Shown: positions 42,509 through 57,686, counted from the first letter of the stretch. The stretch: 64,000 bases of DNA from a virus (IMGVR_UViG_3300026094_000002), one strand, 5' to 3'. Notes: generated by a model not told the origin, from the letters alone. Program-made: numbers and translations.

Positions 42509-43522
42509 TTAAATATAAATTGTCTCTGCTGGCTGAATTTGTCTCACATCATAGAAAAACAAATCTACAGACGGGATCTTGTCTCTGGACATTTTATGTA
42601 TAACAAAATCAACGCTTTCTTTTGAAAAAAAGTAATCTAAAAATGGACGCAGACGGTTTGAACGCTCACACCATATTCTATAGACATATTTTTCCTCATC
42701 CACCCAAAAATAACTTGCACCTGAATGTGAACTTCCGTTCCCACCACTTTTTCCTCTGGATGTTTTCAATACAGGGTAAAGTGTTTTAGCAATAGGCACC
42801 ATATCATTTTTATACGCTGACTTTTCTGAACGATAATGTGATTGTAGATGTTCTAATTTTAAATCTTCATCATAAAAATCTGGGATAGTTACCAACAAAG
42901 GAAAACAAGCAGAATTAACCGTTTTAGCAGAGAGGTCTTCTCTTAAAAGTCTCATCATCTTTTTTCTTGTGTCACTAACATCACCAGATTTTAATGCTGC
43001 CACCGTGAATTTACTTTCAAAGTGTTTTCTAATATCATCTGCTTTTTCTTTTGCAGCATTACTAGGGTTGTGAAAATGCTTCTCAAGTTCAGAGTCGCCA
43101 ATGTCCAGTGTACCAGATAGCAAAAATCCTTCCAGTATCTGAACAATTTCTACATTGCCAATTTGTTTATTCTTCAACTCACAGATAATAGCAAGAAGAT
43201 CAGATGGAAAAGTGAATTTTCTCAGTGGAGTACCCACATCAAATATATCAAATGGCCAGTCTATTGTTGCATCAATACTTGCATCTCCAGCACTCAAATC
43301 TATGCAATCGATGTCAATTGTAATATCATCATCACTAAACAATGCATCAGATATATCAATCGTGTTTTCTATCTGGTTGTTTGTTAGAGTCAGGGTTCCA
43401 AATTCTGTCCCACCCTTTTTTGTATTTGTCATCATCTGCACCTTTTCTTCGTTGATCACCTTTGCCACCTTCCCATTTACCGCCCATCTTTGTTGTCCTC
43501 TTGTTCTTTGTCTATACGCCAA
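42509..43522 (-). CDS. hypothetical protein
   Basis: 337 aa ORF. Confidence 0.55.
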   Translation of the reverse strand: MAYRQRTRGQQRWAVNGKVAKVINEEKVQMMTNTKKGGTEFGTLTLTNNQIENTIDISDALFSDDDITIDIDCIDLSAGDASIDATIDWPFDIFDVGTPLRKFTFPSDLLAIICELKNKQIGNVEIVQILEGFLLSGTLDIGDSELEKHFHNPSNAAKEKADDIRKHFESKFTVAALKSGDVSDTRKKMMRLLREDLSAKTVNSACFPLLVTIPDFYDEDLKLEHLQSHYRSEKSAYKNDMVPIAKTLYPVLKTSRGKSGGNGSSHSGASYFWVDEEKYVYRIWCERSNRLRPFLDYFFSKESVDFVIHKMSRDKIPSVDLFFYDVRQIQPAETIYI

Positions 43523-52608: not shown

Positions 52609-53076
52609 TCAAAAAGCATCTGCCACTGATGATGCAGCCCATGCTTCTGGTTTTACTTTAGCATCAACTTGACACATACCTCGAATATATCCCAATGCTT
52701 CAGTTATAATTGCAGAACTTTTATGCTCTTTTTCTGGATTAATATCAAGATGTATCTCAATGTCTTTGTCTAAACAATTGTCAACATTATCAATCAAATC
52801 AAGATATAATTGTGATACTTTATACACTTCGGTCATTAAACGAAGACTGGGTTTCTTTTTGTCTAATCCCTTGGCTTCTTCAACCGAGTTTTCATAAAAC
52901 AATTTCCCACCGTGCTTGCTATCGATATGCACAACAATGGCTGTAGTATAAGAAATCATTGGTTTTCGTTCGCTATTGTGAAATACCCGACTATCACAAC
53001 CTACATACAATCGTGTTTCTGGACCACAAGTTTCTAAAAATTTATCGATGTTGTTGAAGTCTATTTTGGTTGTCAC
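52609..53076 (-). CDS. RNase H-like YkuK-family protein
   Basis: YVGCDS, RL.TEV, EIHLDIN, KP.AWAASSVAD. Confidence 0.82.
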   Translation of the reverse strand: MTTKIDFNNIDKFLETCGPETRLYVGCDSRVFHNSERKPMISYTTAIVVHIDSKHGGKLFYENSVEEAKGLDKKKPSLRLMTEVYKVSQLYLDLIDNVDNCLDKDIEIHLDINPEKEHKSSAIITEALGYIRGMCQVDAKVKPEAWAASSVADAF

Positions 53077-53124: not shown

Positions 53125-54150
53125 TTATAAATTGGGCAATATTAAGCCGCGATAATTTTGCTCGAAAACGGACTCTGCCATTCGTTGGCCCACAACAAAA
53201 TTATGATGTAATTTTTCTTCGTTCTTCGCAATATAGTCTTTAAAATGTTGTAGTGGTATTTTAGATAGCCTATCAATCTCGCCACAAACGTGTTCGATAC
53301 GTTCATGTGGATCTTCTATGTCATCATAGGATTCATCAATCAAATCTGGAAAACTTTCAAATCCCCATTTTCGCAAATCTTTTAGTGTATGTGGAGAACT
53401 CACTTCAATAAATGGTCGAGCAAGGTTAGCACATTTAATTAACTTTTCAGAATAACACGGTCCATGGCCATGAAATACAGTTTCACAATTTATGCTCACT
53501 GCACTTTTTATATGTGGCTGTAGGCTATCAAAAGACATCATCTGCCCAATGTGTGATCCAGCCTGTTCCTGCTCTGGCAATTCCGTATAATCACGTTCTC
53601 TTAAATTTAGAAAACGATTGAAGTTGTAGTACCACTCATGATAATCACACTTGCTATAACTCCAGTGTGTATTATCCAACAACTGTTTTTCTACTAAGAA
53701 TTTGTGTATGTAATAATTGTGGTCATGGCGACTACTACTTAACCGACAAAATGTTTTGTCAATGCTATCAAGGCGTAAATCGAAATCTGAGTTGATTTCA
53801 TATATTGGAGCAATTAGATGGCCGGGCCAGTATCTCCAAACTGAAAACCCATTTCTTTTAAAGATATTGTAGTAATACTCGTCATTGACAAATATTGGGA
53901 TATCTTTAAGACAACTATAAATTCTGTTTAATACAAAATCCCAGTCCCACTCTTTATATGACTCACAATTTTCTTCAAATATAAAGCATATATCTTCTTT
54001 TGGTACGGGTGGGATTTCTTGTCTTACGTCATTATAATTTTCAAAAATGCCGTCAAGTACCAGAGAAAACTCTGAGCGGTCTATTTCAATAGCATTTGGA
54101 AATTGTGCTTGAAAGGGATAAGCAACGGTAAATTCTCTGCGAAAATTCAT
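53125..54150 (-). CDS. glycosyltransferase-like hypothetical protein
   Basis: CETV....SEK..K......PF.......L..L..WGFESF..LIDESYD; TATAAATA upstream. Confidence 0.5.
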   Translation of the reverse strand: MNFRREFTVAYPFQAQFPNAIEIDRSEFSLVLDGIFENYNDVRQEIPPVPKEDICFIFEENCESYKEWDWDFVLNRIYSCLKDIPIFVNDEYYYNIFKRNGFSVWRYWPGHLIAPIYEINSDFDLRLDSIDKTFCRLSSSRHDHNYYIHKFLVEKQLLDNTHWSYSKCDYHEWYYNFNRFLNLRERDYTELPEQEQAGSHIGQMMSFDSLQPHIKSAVSINCETVFHGHGPCYSEKLIKCANLARPFIEVSSPHTLKDLRKWGFESFPDLIDESYDDIEDPHERIEHVCGEIDRLSKIPLQHFKDYIAKNEEKLHHNFVVGQRMAESVFEQNYRGLILPNL

Positions 54151-54156
54151 TAGTGA

Positions 54157-54164
54157 TATTTATA
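54157..54164 (-). promoter_or_regulatory. T4-type late promoter TATAAATA
   Basis: Exact consensus just upstream of the 54150 ATG; another at 61035-61042; TAAATA variants precede many genes. Confidence 0.75.
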
Positions 54165-54170
54165 GAAAAA

Positions 54171-54411
54171 CAGAAGCGGTGAACGAGTAATGAACAAAAA
54201 CAAAAGACATATGCTGATTAACCGTATCAGTGATCCAGCATAAACAATGCACAAATCACAATTTACAAACTGCTTATTTCCAAAGAACAATTTACAAAAT
54301 CAAATAATCACTTTGGAACACTGCAGAAAGTCACGTCATCAACGCGTTCTCTGTTAAAAAATAGTAAGAAAAAACTTACTGGGGTTCATCCTCACTTTTC
54401 AACCGCTTCTG
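54171..54411 (-). ncRNA. candidate ~240-nt multibranch structured RNA
   Basis: Closing stem CAGAAGCGGTTGAA/TTCACCGCTTCTG extended by GAGGATGAAC/GTTCATTACTC; internal hairpins AGTAAG/CTTACT, CAGAGAA/TTTCTG, TTCCAAAG/CTTTGGAA, TATGCTG/CAGCATA; no ORF. Confidence 0.7.
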
Positions 54412-54442
54412 GATGGTTTACCACTCAAAACAGGCTTAACCA

Positions 54443-55021
54443 TCAAAAATCGGAAATCATACCTAAACGAGCAAGAAGTTTTTCTTCATCTTCATCTAAC
54501 TCAATTTCAGTGTCAATGTTAGCAGCAAGAATCATTTCCTGTACTTCCTGCTTGGTACGTTTAAGGTTGGCAAGTTCTAAGCGATATTTGTCAATATCAT
54601 TATCAGTCAGAACGCCTGTGCTAATAGAAACACCACCAAAGCCACCATAATGGCTTGCTTCAGTAGATTCCTGACGCTTTTTAAGACGACCGTTCAAAAC
54701 AGTAGTTTTATCTTGTGGTCGGGCATTTGCAAACTGCGTGTAAAGTTGAATTTGCTTGTCAATCATTGCTGCATCTGCGAGGAGGTCAGAAATACCTTCA
54801 TCTGCATTTGCTCGTGCAACCTTCTTGCGAATATCAAGCATAACGCCAGTTAGTTTATCCCATGTTTTCAAGTGACCATCAAGATTGCTCTTGGCTGTCT
54901 TAACTTGGTCTTCTGCCCACTCATATTCATTAAGTGAAATTTCGGTAGAAAAATCTAAACGATTCATTTCTTCACGAATCTGTGTTTGAATAGCGTGTGC
55001 TTTGCGTAGATTAATTTTCAT
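54443..55021 (-). CDS. 192-aa coiled-coil protein, distantly DIP1984-like
   Basis: Start reassigned to MKINLRKAH because the track's N-terminus lies inside the tRNA-like RNA; helical heptads, C-terminal I.AANIDTEIEL. Confidence 0.7.
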   Translation of the reverse strand: MKINLRKAHAIQTQIREEMNRLDFSTEISLNEYEWAEDQVKTAKSNLDGHLKTWDKLTGVMLDIRKKVARANADEGISDLLADAAMIDKQIQLYTQFANARPQDKTTVLNGRLKKRQESTEASHYGGFGGVSISTGVLTDNDIDKYRLELANLKRTKQEVQEMILAANIDTEIELDEDEEKLLARLGMISDF

Positions 55022-55040
55022 AATGTTTCTCTCTTTTGTT

Positions 55041-55126
55041 TGGCACCCCCTGAAGGAATTGAACCTTGCACCTTCCACCCAACATTAAGGAAGCGGTTTA
55101 GAAGACCGCTGTCGGGAACAGGGGGT
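55041..55126 (-). ncRNA. tRNA-like RNA lacking a D-arm (anticodon loop CUUCUAA, UCU)
   Basis: Acceptor ACCCCCT/AGGGGGT-G-CCA, GCGGT/ACCGC anticodon stem, GGTTCAATTCC T-loop; only 9 nt where the D-arm should be. Confidence 0.75.
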
Positions 55127-55144
55127 AATGATTTAATATTTAAA

Positions 55145-55591
55145 CTAAGTGTCTTCTTCGCCTTTGTCTATAACAAAAGGTGCTCGAATTAGAATCTGTT
55201 CCATATCCACTTCCCAATCATGCTCACCACCAAAGATCCACTCCAAACCTGTAAGACCATCAGCGTCTTCTGTTTCACGAGTGCATAACTGTTCAATATA
55301 ATCTCGTTCTTCGGAATCAAATTCGCCATGGAATTCTACGGATACTGCGATAAGGTCGTCCAGTTCTGCTCCCCATCCATGTTGAGGGTCGCACACTGCT
55401 ACTTCTTCTTCCTCAACCCAATCCATGTCTTCTTCGGGAACAAATCCCTGACCCCAGCGGTAAGTCTCTGTGACATCAAACCCACGCACATTACCTTCAG
55501 GTGTTTTCTGAAACATCTCAACCAAATAATCCACTGATTTCTTTTCAAGTGGATGAATTCGTACTACGGGTTCTTCGGTTTCTTCAATCAC
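55145..55591 (-). CDS. acidic hypothetical protein
   Basis: 148 aa ORF, GTG start. Confidence 0.55.
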   Translation of the reverse strand: MIEETEEPVVRIHPLEKKSVDYLVEMFQKTPEGNVRGFDVTETYRWGQGFVPEEDMDWVEEEEVAVCDPQHGWGAELDDLIAVSVEFHGEFDSEERDYIEQLCTRETEDADGLTGLEWIFGGEHDWEVDMEQILIRAPFVIDKGEEDT

Positions 55592-55628
55592 AAATTTTTC
55601 CTATTTTTTTACTTTTAAAACCATTGAG

Positions 55629-55738
55629 AAGATGACTGACAGGGTGGAGTTGAACCACCGAGCGGAGCTACCTTTTTATCACCGGCCACCGGGTGCACGG
55701 GAATCGAACCCGGCTACTCCCATTTCAGCAGTCATCTT
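55629..55738 (-). ncRNA. 110-nt tRNA-mimic RNA with two T-loops (YrlA-like topology)
   Basis: 10-bp closing stem AAGATGACTG/CAGTCATCTT; CGGG-TTCGATT-CCCG and GGTGG-TTCAACT-CCACC arms. Confidence 0.7.
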
Positions 55739-55754
55739 GTCAATGATAACAATG

Positions 55755-55849
55755 TTTTAGAATAGAGACTGTTCGGTTTTTCCCTCTAAAGGTAAACTTC
55801 CTCCACCGAAAGGAACACCCTGCAGAGTGTTTCAGTCTCTATACTAAAA
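55755..55849. ncRNA. candidate 95-nt closed-stem RNA
   Basis: TTTTAG.ATAGAGACTG/CAGTCTCTAT.CTAAAA with internal AACAC/GTGTT and TTCGGT/ACCGAA arms. Confidence 0.55.
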
Positions 55850-55867
55850 AATTGCATTGATGACACC

Positions 55868-56015
55868 ATAACAATACACACTCATTTTTATTGCCCGATA
55901 GCCTAGGATTTGGCAGGGTCTGTATAGTGCAGTCGGGAAGCCACTCCCGATGGTTCTAGTACATTTACCGTTCATGTCTTGTACACTGAACGCAACCCTG
56001 AGTGTGTATCGTTAT
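55868..56015. ncRNA. candidate 148-nt closed-stem RNA
   Basis: 17-bp ATAACGATACACACTCA/TGAGTGTGTATTGTTAT stem; internal CAGGGT/ACCCTG and TCGGGAG/TTCCCGA arms. Confidence 0.6.
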
Positions 56016-56038
56016 ATTGTCTCCATATTTTTTTTAAA

Positions 56039-56116
56039 TGGTGGGACCACTCAGATTTGAACTGAGACTCACGCGTCTTATGAGGACGGGGTTTTAACCA
56101 ATTAAACTATGGTCCC
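56039..56116 (-). tRNA. tRNA anticodon CAT (Ile2 or elongator Met)
   Basis: GGGACCA/TGGTCCC-A-CCA, CGTC-CTCATAA-GACG, CTCAG-TTCAAAT-CTGAG; lacks initiator features. Confidence 0.9.
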
Positions 56117-56931
56117 AAAAACTTATGTTCATTCAATAGTTGCATTATACTATAATCATACAAATTGTCAACTACTTTTTTATCAATAACTACAAGATTT
56201 GCTGTTAATTGATTCCACTTTGCCCGATCTTGTTCTGTTTCAAATCCTTTTACTTCCAAATAAGAATCATACTCTGGCAAATAAAAATCTGGAAAATAAC
56301 GCCGTTCTTTGCCCTCAAAAATGTAGGGATAAGAACAATGTTCATATTGCCACTCTATTTTATTAAAGTCTAGCCACTCTGCGGTCTTAACTTCCCAATT
56401 ACCTTTTAAGAGAATTCCCCTGTATTCAATTTGTTTAACTCTACCAATAATGTTATTCACCGAATATGATTCAGGATAATCTTCAACGGCTTTCAACATA
56501 GATTTAGAATGATTAGACTTTTGTTCAGTCGTCCATACTCTTTTTTTACTCGCCTCTGATATTTTTTTTCTAGTTTCTTCGGAGACGACAGGCTTTGGCT
56601 GATTTAATCTTTCTGCTTTTAGAAACTGATTAGAACCTTTTCCCTCCTTACCTAACATTCCATATGAAGGTTTAACTTTTATTTTGTCGGGGTTTTCTTT
56701 ACACCGTATTTCATGCTGACGCAAAGATACTTTTGTTTTATAAAGTTTACCACAATATTGACAATTGGCATTTATTACTGGATTGTTATTTTTTCTTGAT
56801 GCATAACGATTTTTACTCTCAATGCCTTTTGAAACCTTTCTTACCAAACTATATGATACTCCTAAAATTTCTGGAATATCTTTTTTGAGGTAGCCTTGAT
56901 TTACTAACTTTATTATTTTTTGATGGATCAT
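56107..56931 (-). mobile_element. free-standing homing endonuclease-like gene (HTH + Cys/His finger + PD-(D/E)xK)
   Basis: CQYC..H...C, NUMOD3-like VSEETRKKISEA, WE......LD...I.W.YE, YFPDFYLP...YLEVKG. Confidence 0.75.
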
Positions 56932-57251: not shown

Positions 57252-57686
57252 TTATCCTTTAGTATCAACTGGCAATAAACCAGCGGCTTCCATTAACATA
57301 CGTTTAACTCTAACATTAGGCAAACGATAACGAAAGCATTCGTCAAATCCCATCATTTCTGCTACTTCAACAACAGCACCAGAACGACAGGCTCCTACCA
57401 CACAATGTACTAAAACATCTTGTTCATTGTCAAGAGCGGTTTTTAGTATCTCAACAATTTGTTGTGCTTGCTCTGTTGAAATTAACTGTTCTTCTGGAAA
57501 ATATTGTGTTGGATTGTCCGCATCAAGAAATGCAAACTGGTGCTTTTCAACAAATACATCTTCGGCAGGTTCTGGGTATACAGGATCTGGTGGATCAGAA
57601 ATCTGAATCAACACCGAACCAATGGGAGATATACGATGATTGCCACGCTGCACATCATGAAAAGAACAATTTTCTATTTTTGGCAT
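57252..57686 (-). CDS. protein-tyrosine/dual-specificity phosphatase-like
   Basis: HCVVGACRS CX5R P-loop; FLD general-acid loop. Confidence 0.8.
   Translation of the reverse strand: MPKIENCSFHDVQRGNHRISPIGSVLIQISDPPDPVYPEPAEDVFVEKHQFAFLDADNPTQYFPEEQLISTEQAQQIVEILKTALDNEQDVLVHCVVGACRSGAVVEVAEMMGFDECFRYRLPNVRVKRMLMEAAGLLPVDTKG

Follow-up and report, generated by a model that had tools for sequence, protein, structure and literature searches.

What is encoded by a 292-nt stretch of a phage genome whose sole open reading frame is a mechanical one of 46 amino acids that starts with TTG? The stretch (54151-54442) lies between the stop codon of a gene for a 192-aa protein and the start of the next gene. 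We studied it within a window of 64,000 nt (the whole stretch of DNA that was analysed, from whose first letter positions are counted), which belongs to a 194.5-kb virus record from IMG/VR. Because the completeness of this record is estimated at 56%, the virus is a jumbo phage. It has tail-fibre and baseplate genes of the T4 type; in the window, the GC content is ~37% and the minus strand holds nearly all of the genes. Searches with the locus against 50,697 phage records, using both blastn and tblastn, gave no match. Our answer, which we hold with slightly better than even confidence, is that the gap encodes a stand-alone structured RNA and that this RNA and the neighbouring protein form a trans-acting RNA-protein particle with a 7-nt register.

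A gap among tRNA genes

On the minus strand, a promoter is followed by tRNA-Met, an ORF-free stretch, a 148-aa ORF, an RNA that resembles tRNA-Arg(UCU), the 192-aa gene, the 292-nt gap, and the gene at 54150-53125. The features that matter here are:

56144-56171, minus strand: perfect sigma-70-type promoter, TTGACA-16-TATAAT (12/12 matches), which precedes tRNA-Met
56039-56116, minus strand: tRNA-Met (ARAGORN)
55044-55127, minus strand: tRNA-Arg(UCU)-like RNA, directly upstream of the 192-aa gene and in the same transcription unit
54443-55021, minus strand: gene for the 192-aa all-helical protein (P0001), with its stop codon overlapped by hairpin P1 of the RNA
54161-54448, minus strand: structured non-coding RNA of ~285 nt, a full-length match to covariance model R1 (271.7 bits)
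53125-54150, minus strand: next gene, whose start bounds the gap

The promoter is likely to be the start of an operon that ends with the structured RNA. It lies inside the 3' part of an ORF for a 274-aa endonuclease-like protein (56107-56931, minus strand; phrog_15137), and the end of this ORF overlaps tRNA-Met by 10 nt. Directly 3' of tRNA-Met, and in the same operon, are ~400 nt (55623-56021, minus strand) without a credible ORF. The tRNA-Arg(UCU)-like RNA has an encoded CCA. It scores 34.6 bits with the tRNA-Sec model, which is below the cut-off of 47, and it was not called by ARAGORN. Relative to the canonical tRNA-Arg that is found at the same place in a related contig (L002), it is missing ~10 nt of the D-arm and has 19 more nt in the variable region. 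The tRNA-rich region also includes a small ORF with an HCxxGxxRS motif (57252-57686, minus strand), which by eye is of the Cys-phosphatase type, and a gene for an RNaseH_like protein (52609-53076, minus strand; PF04308, E = 7e-20).

A structured RNA with UG dinucleotides at a 7-nt phase

A sequence-only reading of this DNA had described the gap as an ornate RNA with a closing stem of ~24 bp and at least four nested hairpins, and the folding results agree. Read as minus-strand RNA, the gap folds with an MFE of -82.6 kcal/mol (z = -3.68), and none of 100 shuffled sequences folded as well. The arms of the ~24-bp closing helix are at 54389-54411 and 54171-54193, and the helix encloses G/U-rich single strands as well as the hairpins. 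The minus-strand fold also contains the hairpin GATGGTT/AACCATC that had been pointed out at the stop codon. From 5' to 3', the parts of the RNA are:

54412-54444, minus strand: P1, the 5' hairpin GAUGGUU...AACCAUC, with a nested inner hairpin; it overlaps the stop codon
54385-54411, minus strand: 5' strand of the closing helix, with the conserved internal loop AGA.GAG (inverted repeat I1)
54270-54326, minus strand: long internal hairpin with a CUGC...GCAG base; helices 8-9 covary, and UG....UUG is kept in the loop
54243-54269, minus strand: single-stranded phased UUG array, in an unpaired junction of the consensus structure
54209-54242, minus strand: 3' hairpin UAUGC...GCAUA; helices 10-12 covary
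54171-54196, minus strand: 3' strand of the closing helix, with the conserved ACUUG (from the fold, the covariation, and the conserved letters)

In the internal loop of the closing helix, AGA.GAG lies opposite ACUUG. These letters are conserved outside the helices, as are the UG or UUG repeats and a UUUUG that precedes P1 and forms the 5' end in 30 of 44 RNAs. A U-run follows the closing helix in the window (54163-54170), and a run of at least four U is found at this place in only 22 of 44 family members. The direct repeats in the gap are only 12-18 nt long, with two copies each, and the fold beats shuffled sequences on both strands. The last codons of the 192-aa gene and the 5' end of the RNA are the same letters. 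In the terminal T-run of the gene (TTTTTGA, 54443-54449) there is one T more than in two relatives (L002 and L004), so that the protein stops two residues before its close relatives of 193-194 aa, which end in ...SDFDG or ...SDFGD.

Among relatives whose proteins are 59-90% identical, there is an ORF-free gap after the gene in all contigs. We aligned the gaps of 8 relatives using MAFFT only (alignment A2), in which 13 of 66 consensus pairs change on both sides, and built the covariance model R1 from this alignment. Apart from the window, 29 other loci contain full-length matches to R1, with scores of 228-304 bits, and the model matches all 21 of the contigs that were retrieved by a DNA pattern derived from the RNA only. 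We then considered two larger alignments that were fitted to R1, which inflates their pair counts: in A3 (24 distinct close copies), 96.3% of cells are paired and 37 of 66 pairs show compensatory changes, and in A6 (44 diverse copies, including those beside protein relatives at 32-40% identity), 90.8% are paired and 64 of 66 pairs show compensatory changes. As controls for A6, slid alignments were 30-44% paired, and none of 500 shuffles reached as high a value. Within A6, every one of the 13 pairs of P1 (helix 1) has a compensatory change, while helices 2-4 are 93-98% paired with compensatory changes in 20 of 21 pairs. A2 is free of the bias from fitting, and so is A8, a MAFFT-only alignment of the corresponding gaps from six cultured Caulobacter and Brevundimonas phages, in which 22 of 54 pairs are compensatory and the architecture is the same. 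Both of these agree with the structure from A3 and A6. Thus, the covarying structure that the sequence-only reading had anticipated beside homologues is present. A scan of the well-occupied columns of A6 for additional covarying helices, such as pseudoknots, returned the known helices only.

Because the fold is kept with compensatory changes in dozens of relatives, its conservation is far beyond chance. The strand of the RNA is fixed by the many conserved G-U pairs (which would be A-C on the opposite strand) and by the fact that every significant match is on the strand of the gene. We rejected the small ORF in the gap because of indels in the loops and because of the covariation. A simple terminator was also rejected as a reading of the gap; besides the U-run in half of the members, what bears on a terminator or a 3' UTR is that the RNA lies before the gene at 32 of 58 distant loci (see below).

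The RNA matches no family in Rfam 15, in keeping with the earlier failure to assign it to one. When the window was scanned with cmscan at the gathering score, only three tRNAs were found. A scan of 53900-56200 at E ≤ 10 gave nothing credible on 54151-54442: the only overlaps with the gap were SNORD87 (21.7 bits, E = 0.5) and the edge of a match to TeloSII_ncR30 (54436-54516, plus strand, 13.8 bits, E = 3.9). In the loci of five relatives, such scans picked up tRNAs and otherwise only chance matches. The families that the RNA does not match include ROOL, GOLLD, YrlA, tmRNA, 6S, and OLE, and ARAGORN found no tRNA or tmRNA in 54151-54442. The RNA is not described in the literature that we searched on structured RNAs of jumbo phages, non-coding RNA of CcrColossus, DIP1984, or septicolysin. 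A 2023 catalogue of candidate viral RNAs, whose motifs are of 29-151 nt only, may include single hairpins of the RNA (PMC10690425). We also noticed a second, partial match to R1 in a related contig (L010:2590-2644; model positions 180-234, 16.7 bits), in an ORF-free gap beside tRNA-Leu.

The unpaired parts of the RNA are marked by UG dinucleotides, mostly as UUG, at a regular spacing. In the array, UUG is found at 54268, 54261, 54254, and 54247, which is exactly every 7 nt (RNA positions 181, 188, 195, and 202). The loop of the long hairpin has UUG at 54303, 54297, 54290, and 54283, with spacings of 6, 7, and 7 nt, and two more UUG (54203 and 54197) come after the 3' hairpin, in the 3' junction. 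At least four UG at exact 7-nt spacing are present in 49 of 66 distinct RNAs, and the longest chain of UG at period 7 has a mean length of 3.94 in these 66 RNAs, as compared to 1.92 in shuffled sequences. For periods of 5, 6, 8, or 9 nt, just 0-2 of the 66 RNAs have such a chain. There are five phased units in a relative at 35% protein identity and six in CcrColossus, and the phased UG letters are among the few unpaired letters that are conserved. The three motif copies that the sequence-only reading had listed (TTTGTAAATTG twice and TTTGTGCATTG once) are indeed on the minus strand, but its repeat unit, the 11-mer UUUGU(A/G)(A/C)AUUG, is not what has been conserved: the conserved unit is instead the UG at an exact 7-nt phase. 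Having at least four short motifs at a fixed phase in single-stranded RNA is the principle of the TRAP leader.

The neighbouring gene and its product

The association of the RNA with the 192-aa gene, which had been suggested from the single locus, was recovered from both search directions. Starting from the RNA, the gene is directly upstream in 19 of the 21 contigs that were retrieved by the RNA-only pattern; the other two contigs end before the gene could appear, so all 19 testable contigs carry it. Starting from the protein, a profile-based scan of viral contigs gave 80 loci, or 77 after leaving out near-copies. A full-length match to R1 is present on the same strand at 58 of these 77 loci (32-40% identity), and at 11 of the 19 loci without a match there is a chain of UG heptads, with 4-6 units, ~95 nt before the start codon. 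The RNA comes after the gene at 26 of the 58 loci and before it at 32, mostly within 25 nt. The proposal that it is specifically a 3' element therefore does not hold, and an autoregulatory 3' UTR is weakened as an explanation.

What flanks the pair varies widely from locus to locus, and Clp protease, an RF-1 domain protein, radical SAM enzymes, curli genes, and tRNA arrays are among the neighbours. The two gene orders cluster on the protein tree, where only 3-5 changes of order are needed. The pair has therefore outlived at least one such change, followed by long divergence. In one distant relative (L007), the RNA is preceded by a gene for a 124-aa RF-1-domain protein, similar to peptidyl-tRNA hydrolase (L007:2337-2711), and two tRNAs and a gene for a 516-aa radical SAM protein come after the protein gene (L007:3822-5372). 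In another relative (L004, a 106-kb contig), the module adjoins a tRNA array (L004:4286-5639) that includes a tRNA with the anticodon UUA, which reads the stop codon UAA, and another with an 8-nt anticodon loop (GUAG). This suggests that decoding of a stop codon or of four-base codons is possible in that phage.

The pair also reaches cultured phages. Using tblastn with more distant members of the protein family, we found the gene in the Caulobacter phages CcrColossus and CcrPW, in several Brevundimonas jumbo phages, and in the group of Pseudomonas phage PA5oct. Six records of Caulobacter and Brevundimonas jumbo phages have an unannotated gap of ~285-315 nt after the gene, and the gaps from cultured phages fold far better than shuffled sequences (z = -5.3 and -6.4). 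In CcrColossus (JX100810), the gene is gp272 and the gap lies at ~201299-201582. R1 itself reaches CcrColossus only weakly (11.6 bits, E = 0.025).

PA5oct is a different case. Its homologue, gp180 (MK797984, 107445-108008), was found at 26% identity to one member of the family (P0050), and no structured RNA adjoins it: the downstream stretch has z = 0.16 and contains an 84-aa ORF that by eye is glutaredoxin-like. A search of the PA5oct genome with R1 gave nothing convincing, as the best match (12.2 bits, E = 0.195) covers 60 nt and is away from gp180. The four published ncRNAs of PA5oct are also located away from gp180 (PMC7318152). The record for gp180 carries an ESI-MS/MS note, which we read as detection of the protein in the virion. 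Because gp180 lacks an adjoining RNA, we did not transfer the label of virion protein to the family.

A similar arrangement caught our attention in phage T5 (NC_005859), where ~360 nt after T5.085 (which is annotated as a tail fiber protein) are unannotated (43142-43504, minus strand). This gap has a closing stem of ~20 bp (z = -5.41) and, by eye, A-rich repeats ~7 nt apart. Comparing T5.085 to our protein family with hhalign gave no relation (probability 0.5%), which leaves homology with the T5 pair without support.

The protein family is large, with at least 1725 clusters at 50% identity; a word-indexed search gave 49 clusters of relatives. The AlphaFold2 model of the 192-aa protein (mean pLDDT of 87.8) is all-helical except for two short strands. 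Among solved structures, the top match from both Foldseek and VIA-align is 3KDQ, a protein of unknown function from C. diphtheriae, which we take to be DIP1984. Foldseek gives a probability of 0.99, E = 0.1, and TM scores of 0.48/0.58; VIA-align gives Z = 9.6 over 142/152 residues at an rmsd of 5.9, and for helical proteins a Z below ~13 may reflect the arrangement only. Among predicted structures, the matches come from large phages and giant viruses and are uncharacterised, and a mostly viral cluster that bears DUF6847 is a weaker match in shape (TM 0.49/0.60).

At the level of sequence there is no such likeness. NCBIfam gave no match to DIP1984 or DUF6847 at E ≤ 1. The Pfam model of DUF6847 (PF20935) does not match the 192-aa gene, and it matches just 1 of 30 relatives, below the cut-off (E = 0.049); in a six-frame search of the whole genome, it matched a different ORF (13.2 bits). 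Searches of the protein against Pfam, NCBIfam, and PDB sequences gave only weak coiled-coil noise, and PHROGs gave one weak match, to a family of unknown function (phrog_25230, E = 6e-4). The sequence-only reading had seen a resemblance of the protein to the DIP1984-type helical pattern: the top structural match, 3KDQ, would be in keeping with this, and the sequence models do not place the protein in the family. Domain-library searches identified no recognised RNA-binding domain, and searches by sequence and by structure found no nuclease match for the all-helical bundle.

That the protein would associate with itself, as had also been proposed, is consistent with structure prediction. The predicted homodimer has a score of 0.66, while the best control has 0.02; of the proteins solved as pairs of one chain, 20 of 30 attained this mark, as did 1 of 23 solved as single chains. 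Across three runs, at least 97% of contacts agree and the pLDDT of the partner is at least 86. The protein is thus predicted to form a symmetric homodimer. It is mildly acidic (pI of 5.1; the family median is 6.0), and its invariant basic residues (K2, R6, R112, K115, K154, R155, and K157) lie outside the predicted interface.

A proposed particle and its alternatives

We propose that the RNA and the protein probably form an RNA-protein particle that has not been described before. The RNA shares its strand, and very probably its transcript, with the tRNA operon and the neighbouring gene; it would then be excised, with the long closing helix bringing its two ends together. The folded RNA displays UG (mostly UUG) at a 7-nt phase in single strands, with four to six copies in one junction and further copies in the hairpin loop and the 3' junction. 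Copies of the protein might then bind side by side along this array, one binding unit per 7 nt, with the folded parts of the RNA nucleating the binding, and the resulting defined particle would act in trans during infection. Here, co-transcription and excision, the physical binding, and the 7-nt register of binding are what we infer. A discrete RNA, as opposed to a cis element that depends on its position, is favoured by the size of the RNA, its closed architecture, its self-contained and conserved ends, and its ability to lie before or after the gene. From the strict linkage we take the neighbouring protein to be the partner of the RNA, and the 7-nt phase hints that repeated protein units bind next to one another. 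Counting against the particle are that the protein is mildly acidic and lacks a recognised RNA-binding domain, and that the PA5oct homologue has no adjoining RNA.

The close adjacency of RNA and ORF is just as compatible with an element that acts in cis on the mRNA of the protein: an operator for autoregulation, an attenuator, or a stabiliser. Protein in excess would cover the array and alter translation, termination, or decay, and a separate particle would have no job. The details of placement fit this to some extent: P1 overlaps the stop codon in the window, where the U-run after the closing helix looks like that of an intrinsic terminator, and when the RNA is upstream it ends ~18-25 nt before the start codon. 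There is also a precedent in the gene 32 operator of phage T4, which combines a folded nucleation site with an unstructured stretch of repeats; gp32 coats its own leader cooperatively, with a site size of ~7 nt per protein. However, a mechanism that depends on position is hard to reconcile with an RNA that lies after the gene at 26 loci and before it at 32, the terminator-like U-run is missing from half of the 44 members, and, at ~285 nt and with as many as twelve covarying helices, the RNA far exceeds what known operators need. We consider a cis-acting role to be rather unlikely.

A second alternative keeps a trans-acting RNA and does away with the binding partner: the RNA might be a decoy that captures a host RNA-binding protein by way of its UG repeats, or an RNA-only assembly of the ROOL and GOLLD kind, with the neighbouring protein merely co-inherited or a helper. 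The lack of a known RNA-binding domain in the protein fits this idea, as do the repeated short motifs in loops and linkers, which resemble sponge RNAs (CsrB and RsmZ soak up CsrA). The location of the RNA in phage tRNA clusters fits it as well, since ROOL and GOLLD are reported to lie there often (10.1101/2024.12.08.627333). But the linkage to one protein family, seen from both search directions, has persisted through a swap of gene order, changes in the flanking genes, and divergence to 32% identity, and such linkage would not be expected of an unrelated neighbour. We judge an independent RNA to be unlikely. It is far harder still to see the gap as a DNA element in which inverted and direct repeats would make up an origin, iterons, or a site of recombination. 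Both strands out-fold shuffled sequences and short direct repeats are present, as would be seen for such an element, but the pairing is maintained by compensatory changes as the sequence drifts, the G-U pairs that are conserved point to one strand, the element always has the same orientation as the gene, and it is not obvious what a 7-bp phase would mean in duplex DNA. A DNA element is therefore very improbable.

The RNA-protein particle that we favour shares features with several known systems. ROOL and GOLLD (RF03087 and RF01998) are also phage-encoded and multi-branched RNAs of unknown function that are often beside tRNA genes. In contrast to our ~285-nt RNA, with its one linked protein gene and its phased UG, they are ~580-800 nt long and form RNA-only cages. 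The TRAP system (with the Bacillus trp leader) and the HutP system (with the hut leader) are similar in that a short motif recurs at a fixed phase in single-stranded RNA. In these leaders, the repeats are read by an oligomer, one site per subunit; TRAP is a beta-rich 11-mer ring that reads (G/U)AG at a spacing of 5-6 nt in an mRNA leader. Unlike TRAP, our RNA has UG every 7 nt inside a closed fold, and the protein is helical and encoded by a linked gene. The gene 32 operator of T4 shares a folded element beside unstructured repeats and the phage setting, but it is a 5' leader and overlaps the ribosome-binding site, whereas our RNA is also found after the gene and is far larger. CsrB and RsmZ resemble it in having many short motifs in loops and linkers and a dimeric partner (CsrA; in our case the dimer is predicted). 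They differ in that their motif is GGA, without a fixed phase, and in that the partner gene is not adjacent.

In type III toxin-antitoxin systems such as ToxIN, an RNA gene and a protein gene are likewise inherited as a cassette, and their products assemble into an RNA-protein complex, as we propose for our pair. ToxI consists of tandem 36-nt units that are cut by its endoribonuclease partner. Neither tandem repeats of ~36 nt nor an endoribonuclease gene was found at our locus, where the RNA lacks long tandem units and the protein is helical and not a nuclease. For 3KDQ and DUF6847, any likeness would be in the fold and not in the sequence. Finally, phage tRNA operons are known to include RNAs that are not tRNAs: rnaC and rnaD are stable RNAs from the tRNA cluster of T4, and RNAI, RNAIII, and RNAX of T5 are annotated in NC_005859. 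We know of no report of a protein partner or of a phased array for any of these.

More broadly, and more tentatively, we suggest a widespread and undescribed class of viral ribonucleoproteins, which we would put just short of an even chance. In this class, a 3KDQ-like (DIP1984-type) dimer would polymerise in a 7-nt register on a closed, possibly circular RNA that is encoded alongside it; the RNAs would come from tRNA operons, in phages that range from jumbo phages of halophiles to those of Caulobacter. Classes of structured RNA that have such covariation and a dedicated protein partner are rare, and the earlier cases (Y RNA with Ro60, OLE with the Oap proteins, and tmRNA with SmpB) have each led to new biology. 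The RNA and the gene are present, unannotated, in phages that are cultured and genetically tractable (CcrColossus, CcrPW, and the Brevundimonas phages), and the exact 7-nt phase is a sharp and cheap prediction for binding. The RNA model would also fill a recurrent "empty" gap in the annotation of jumbo phages.
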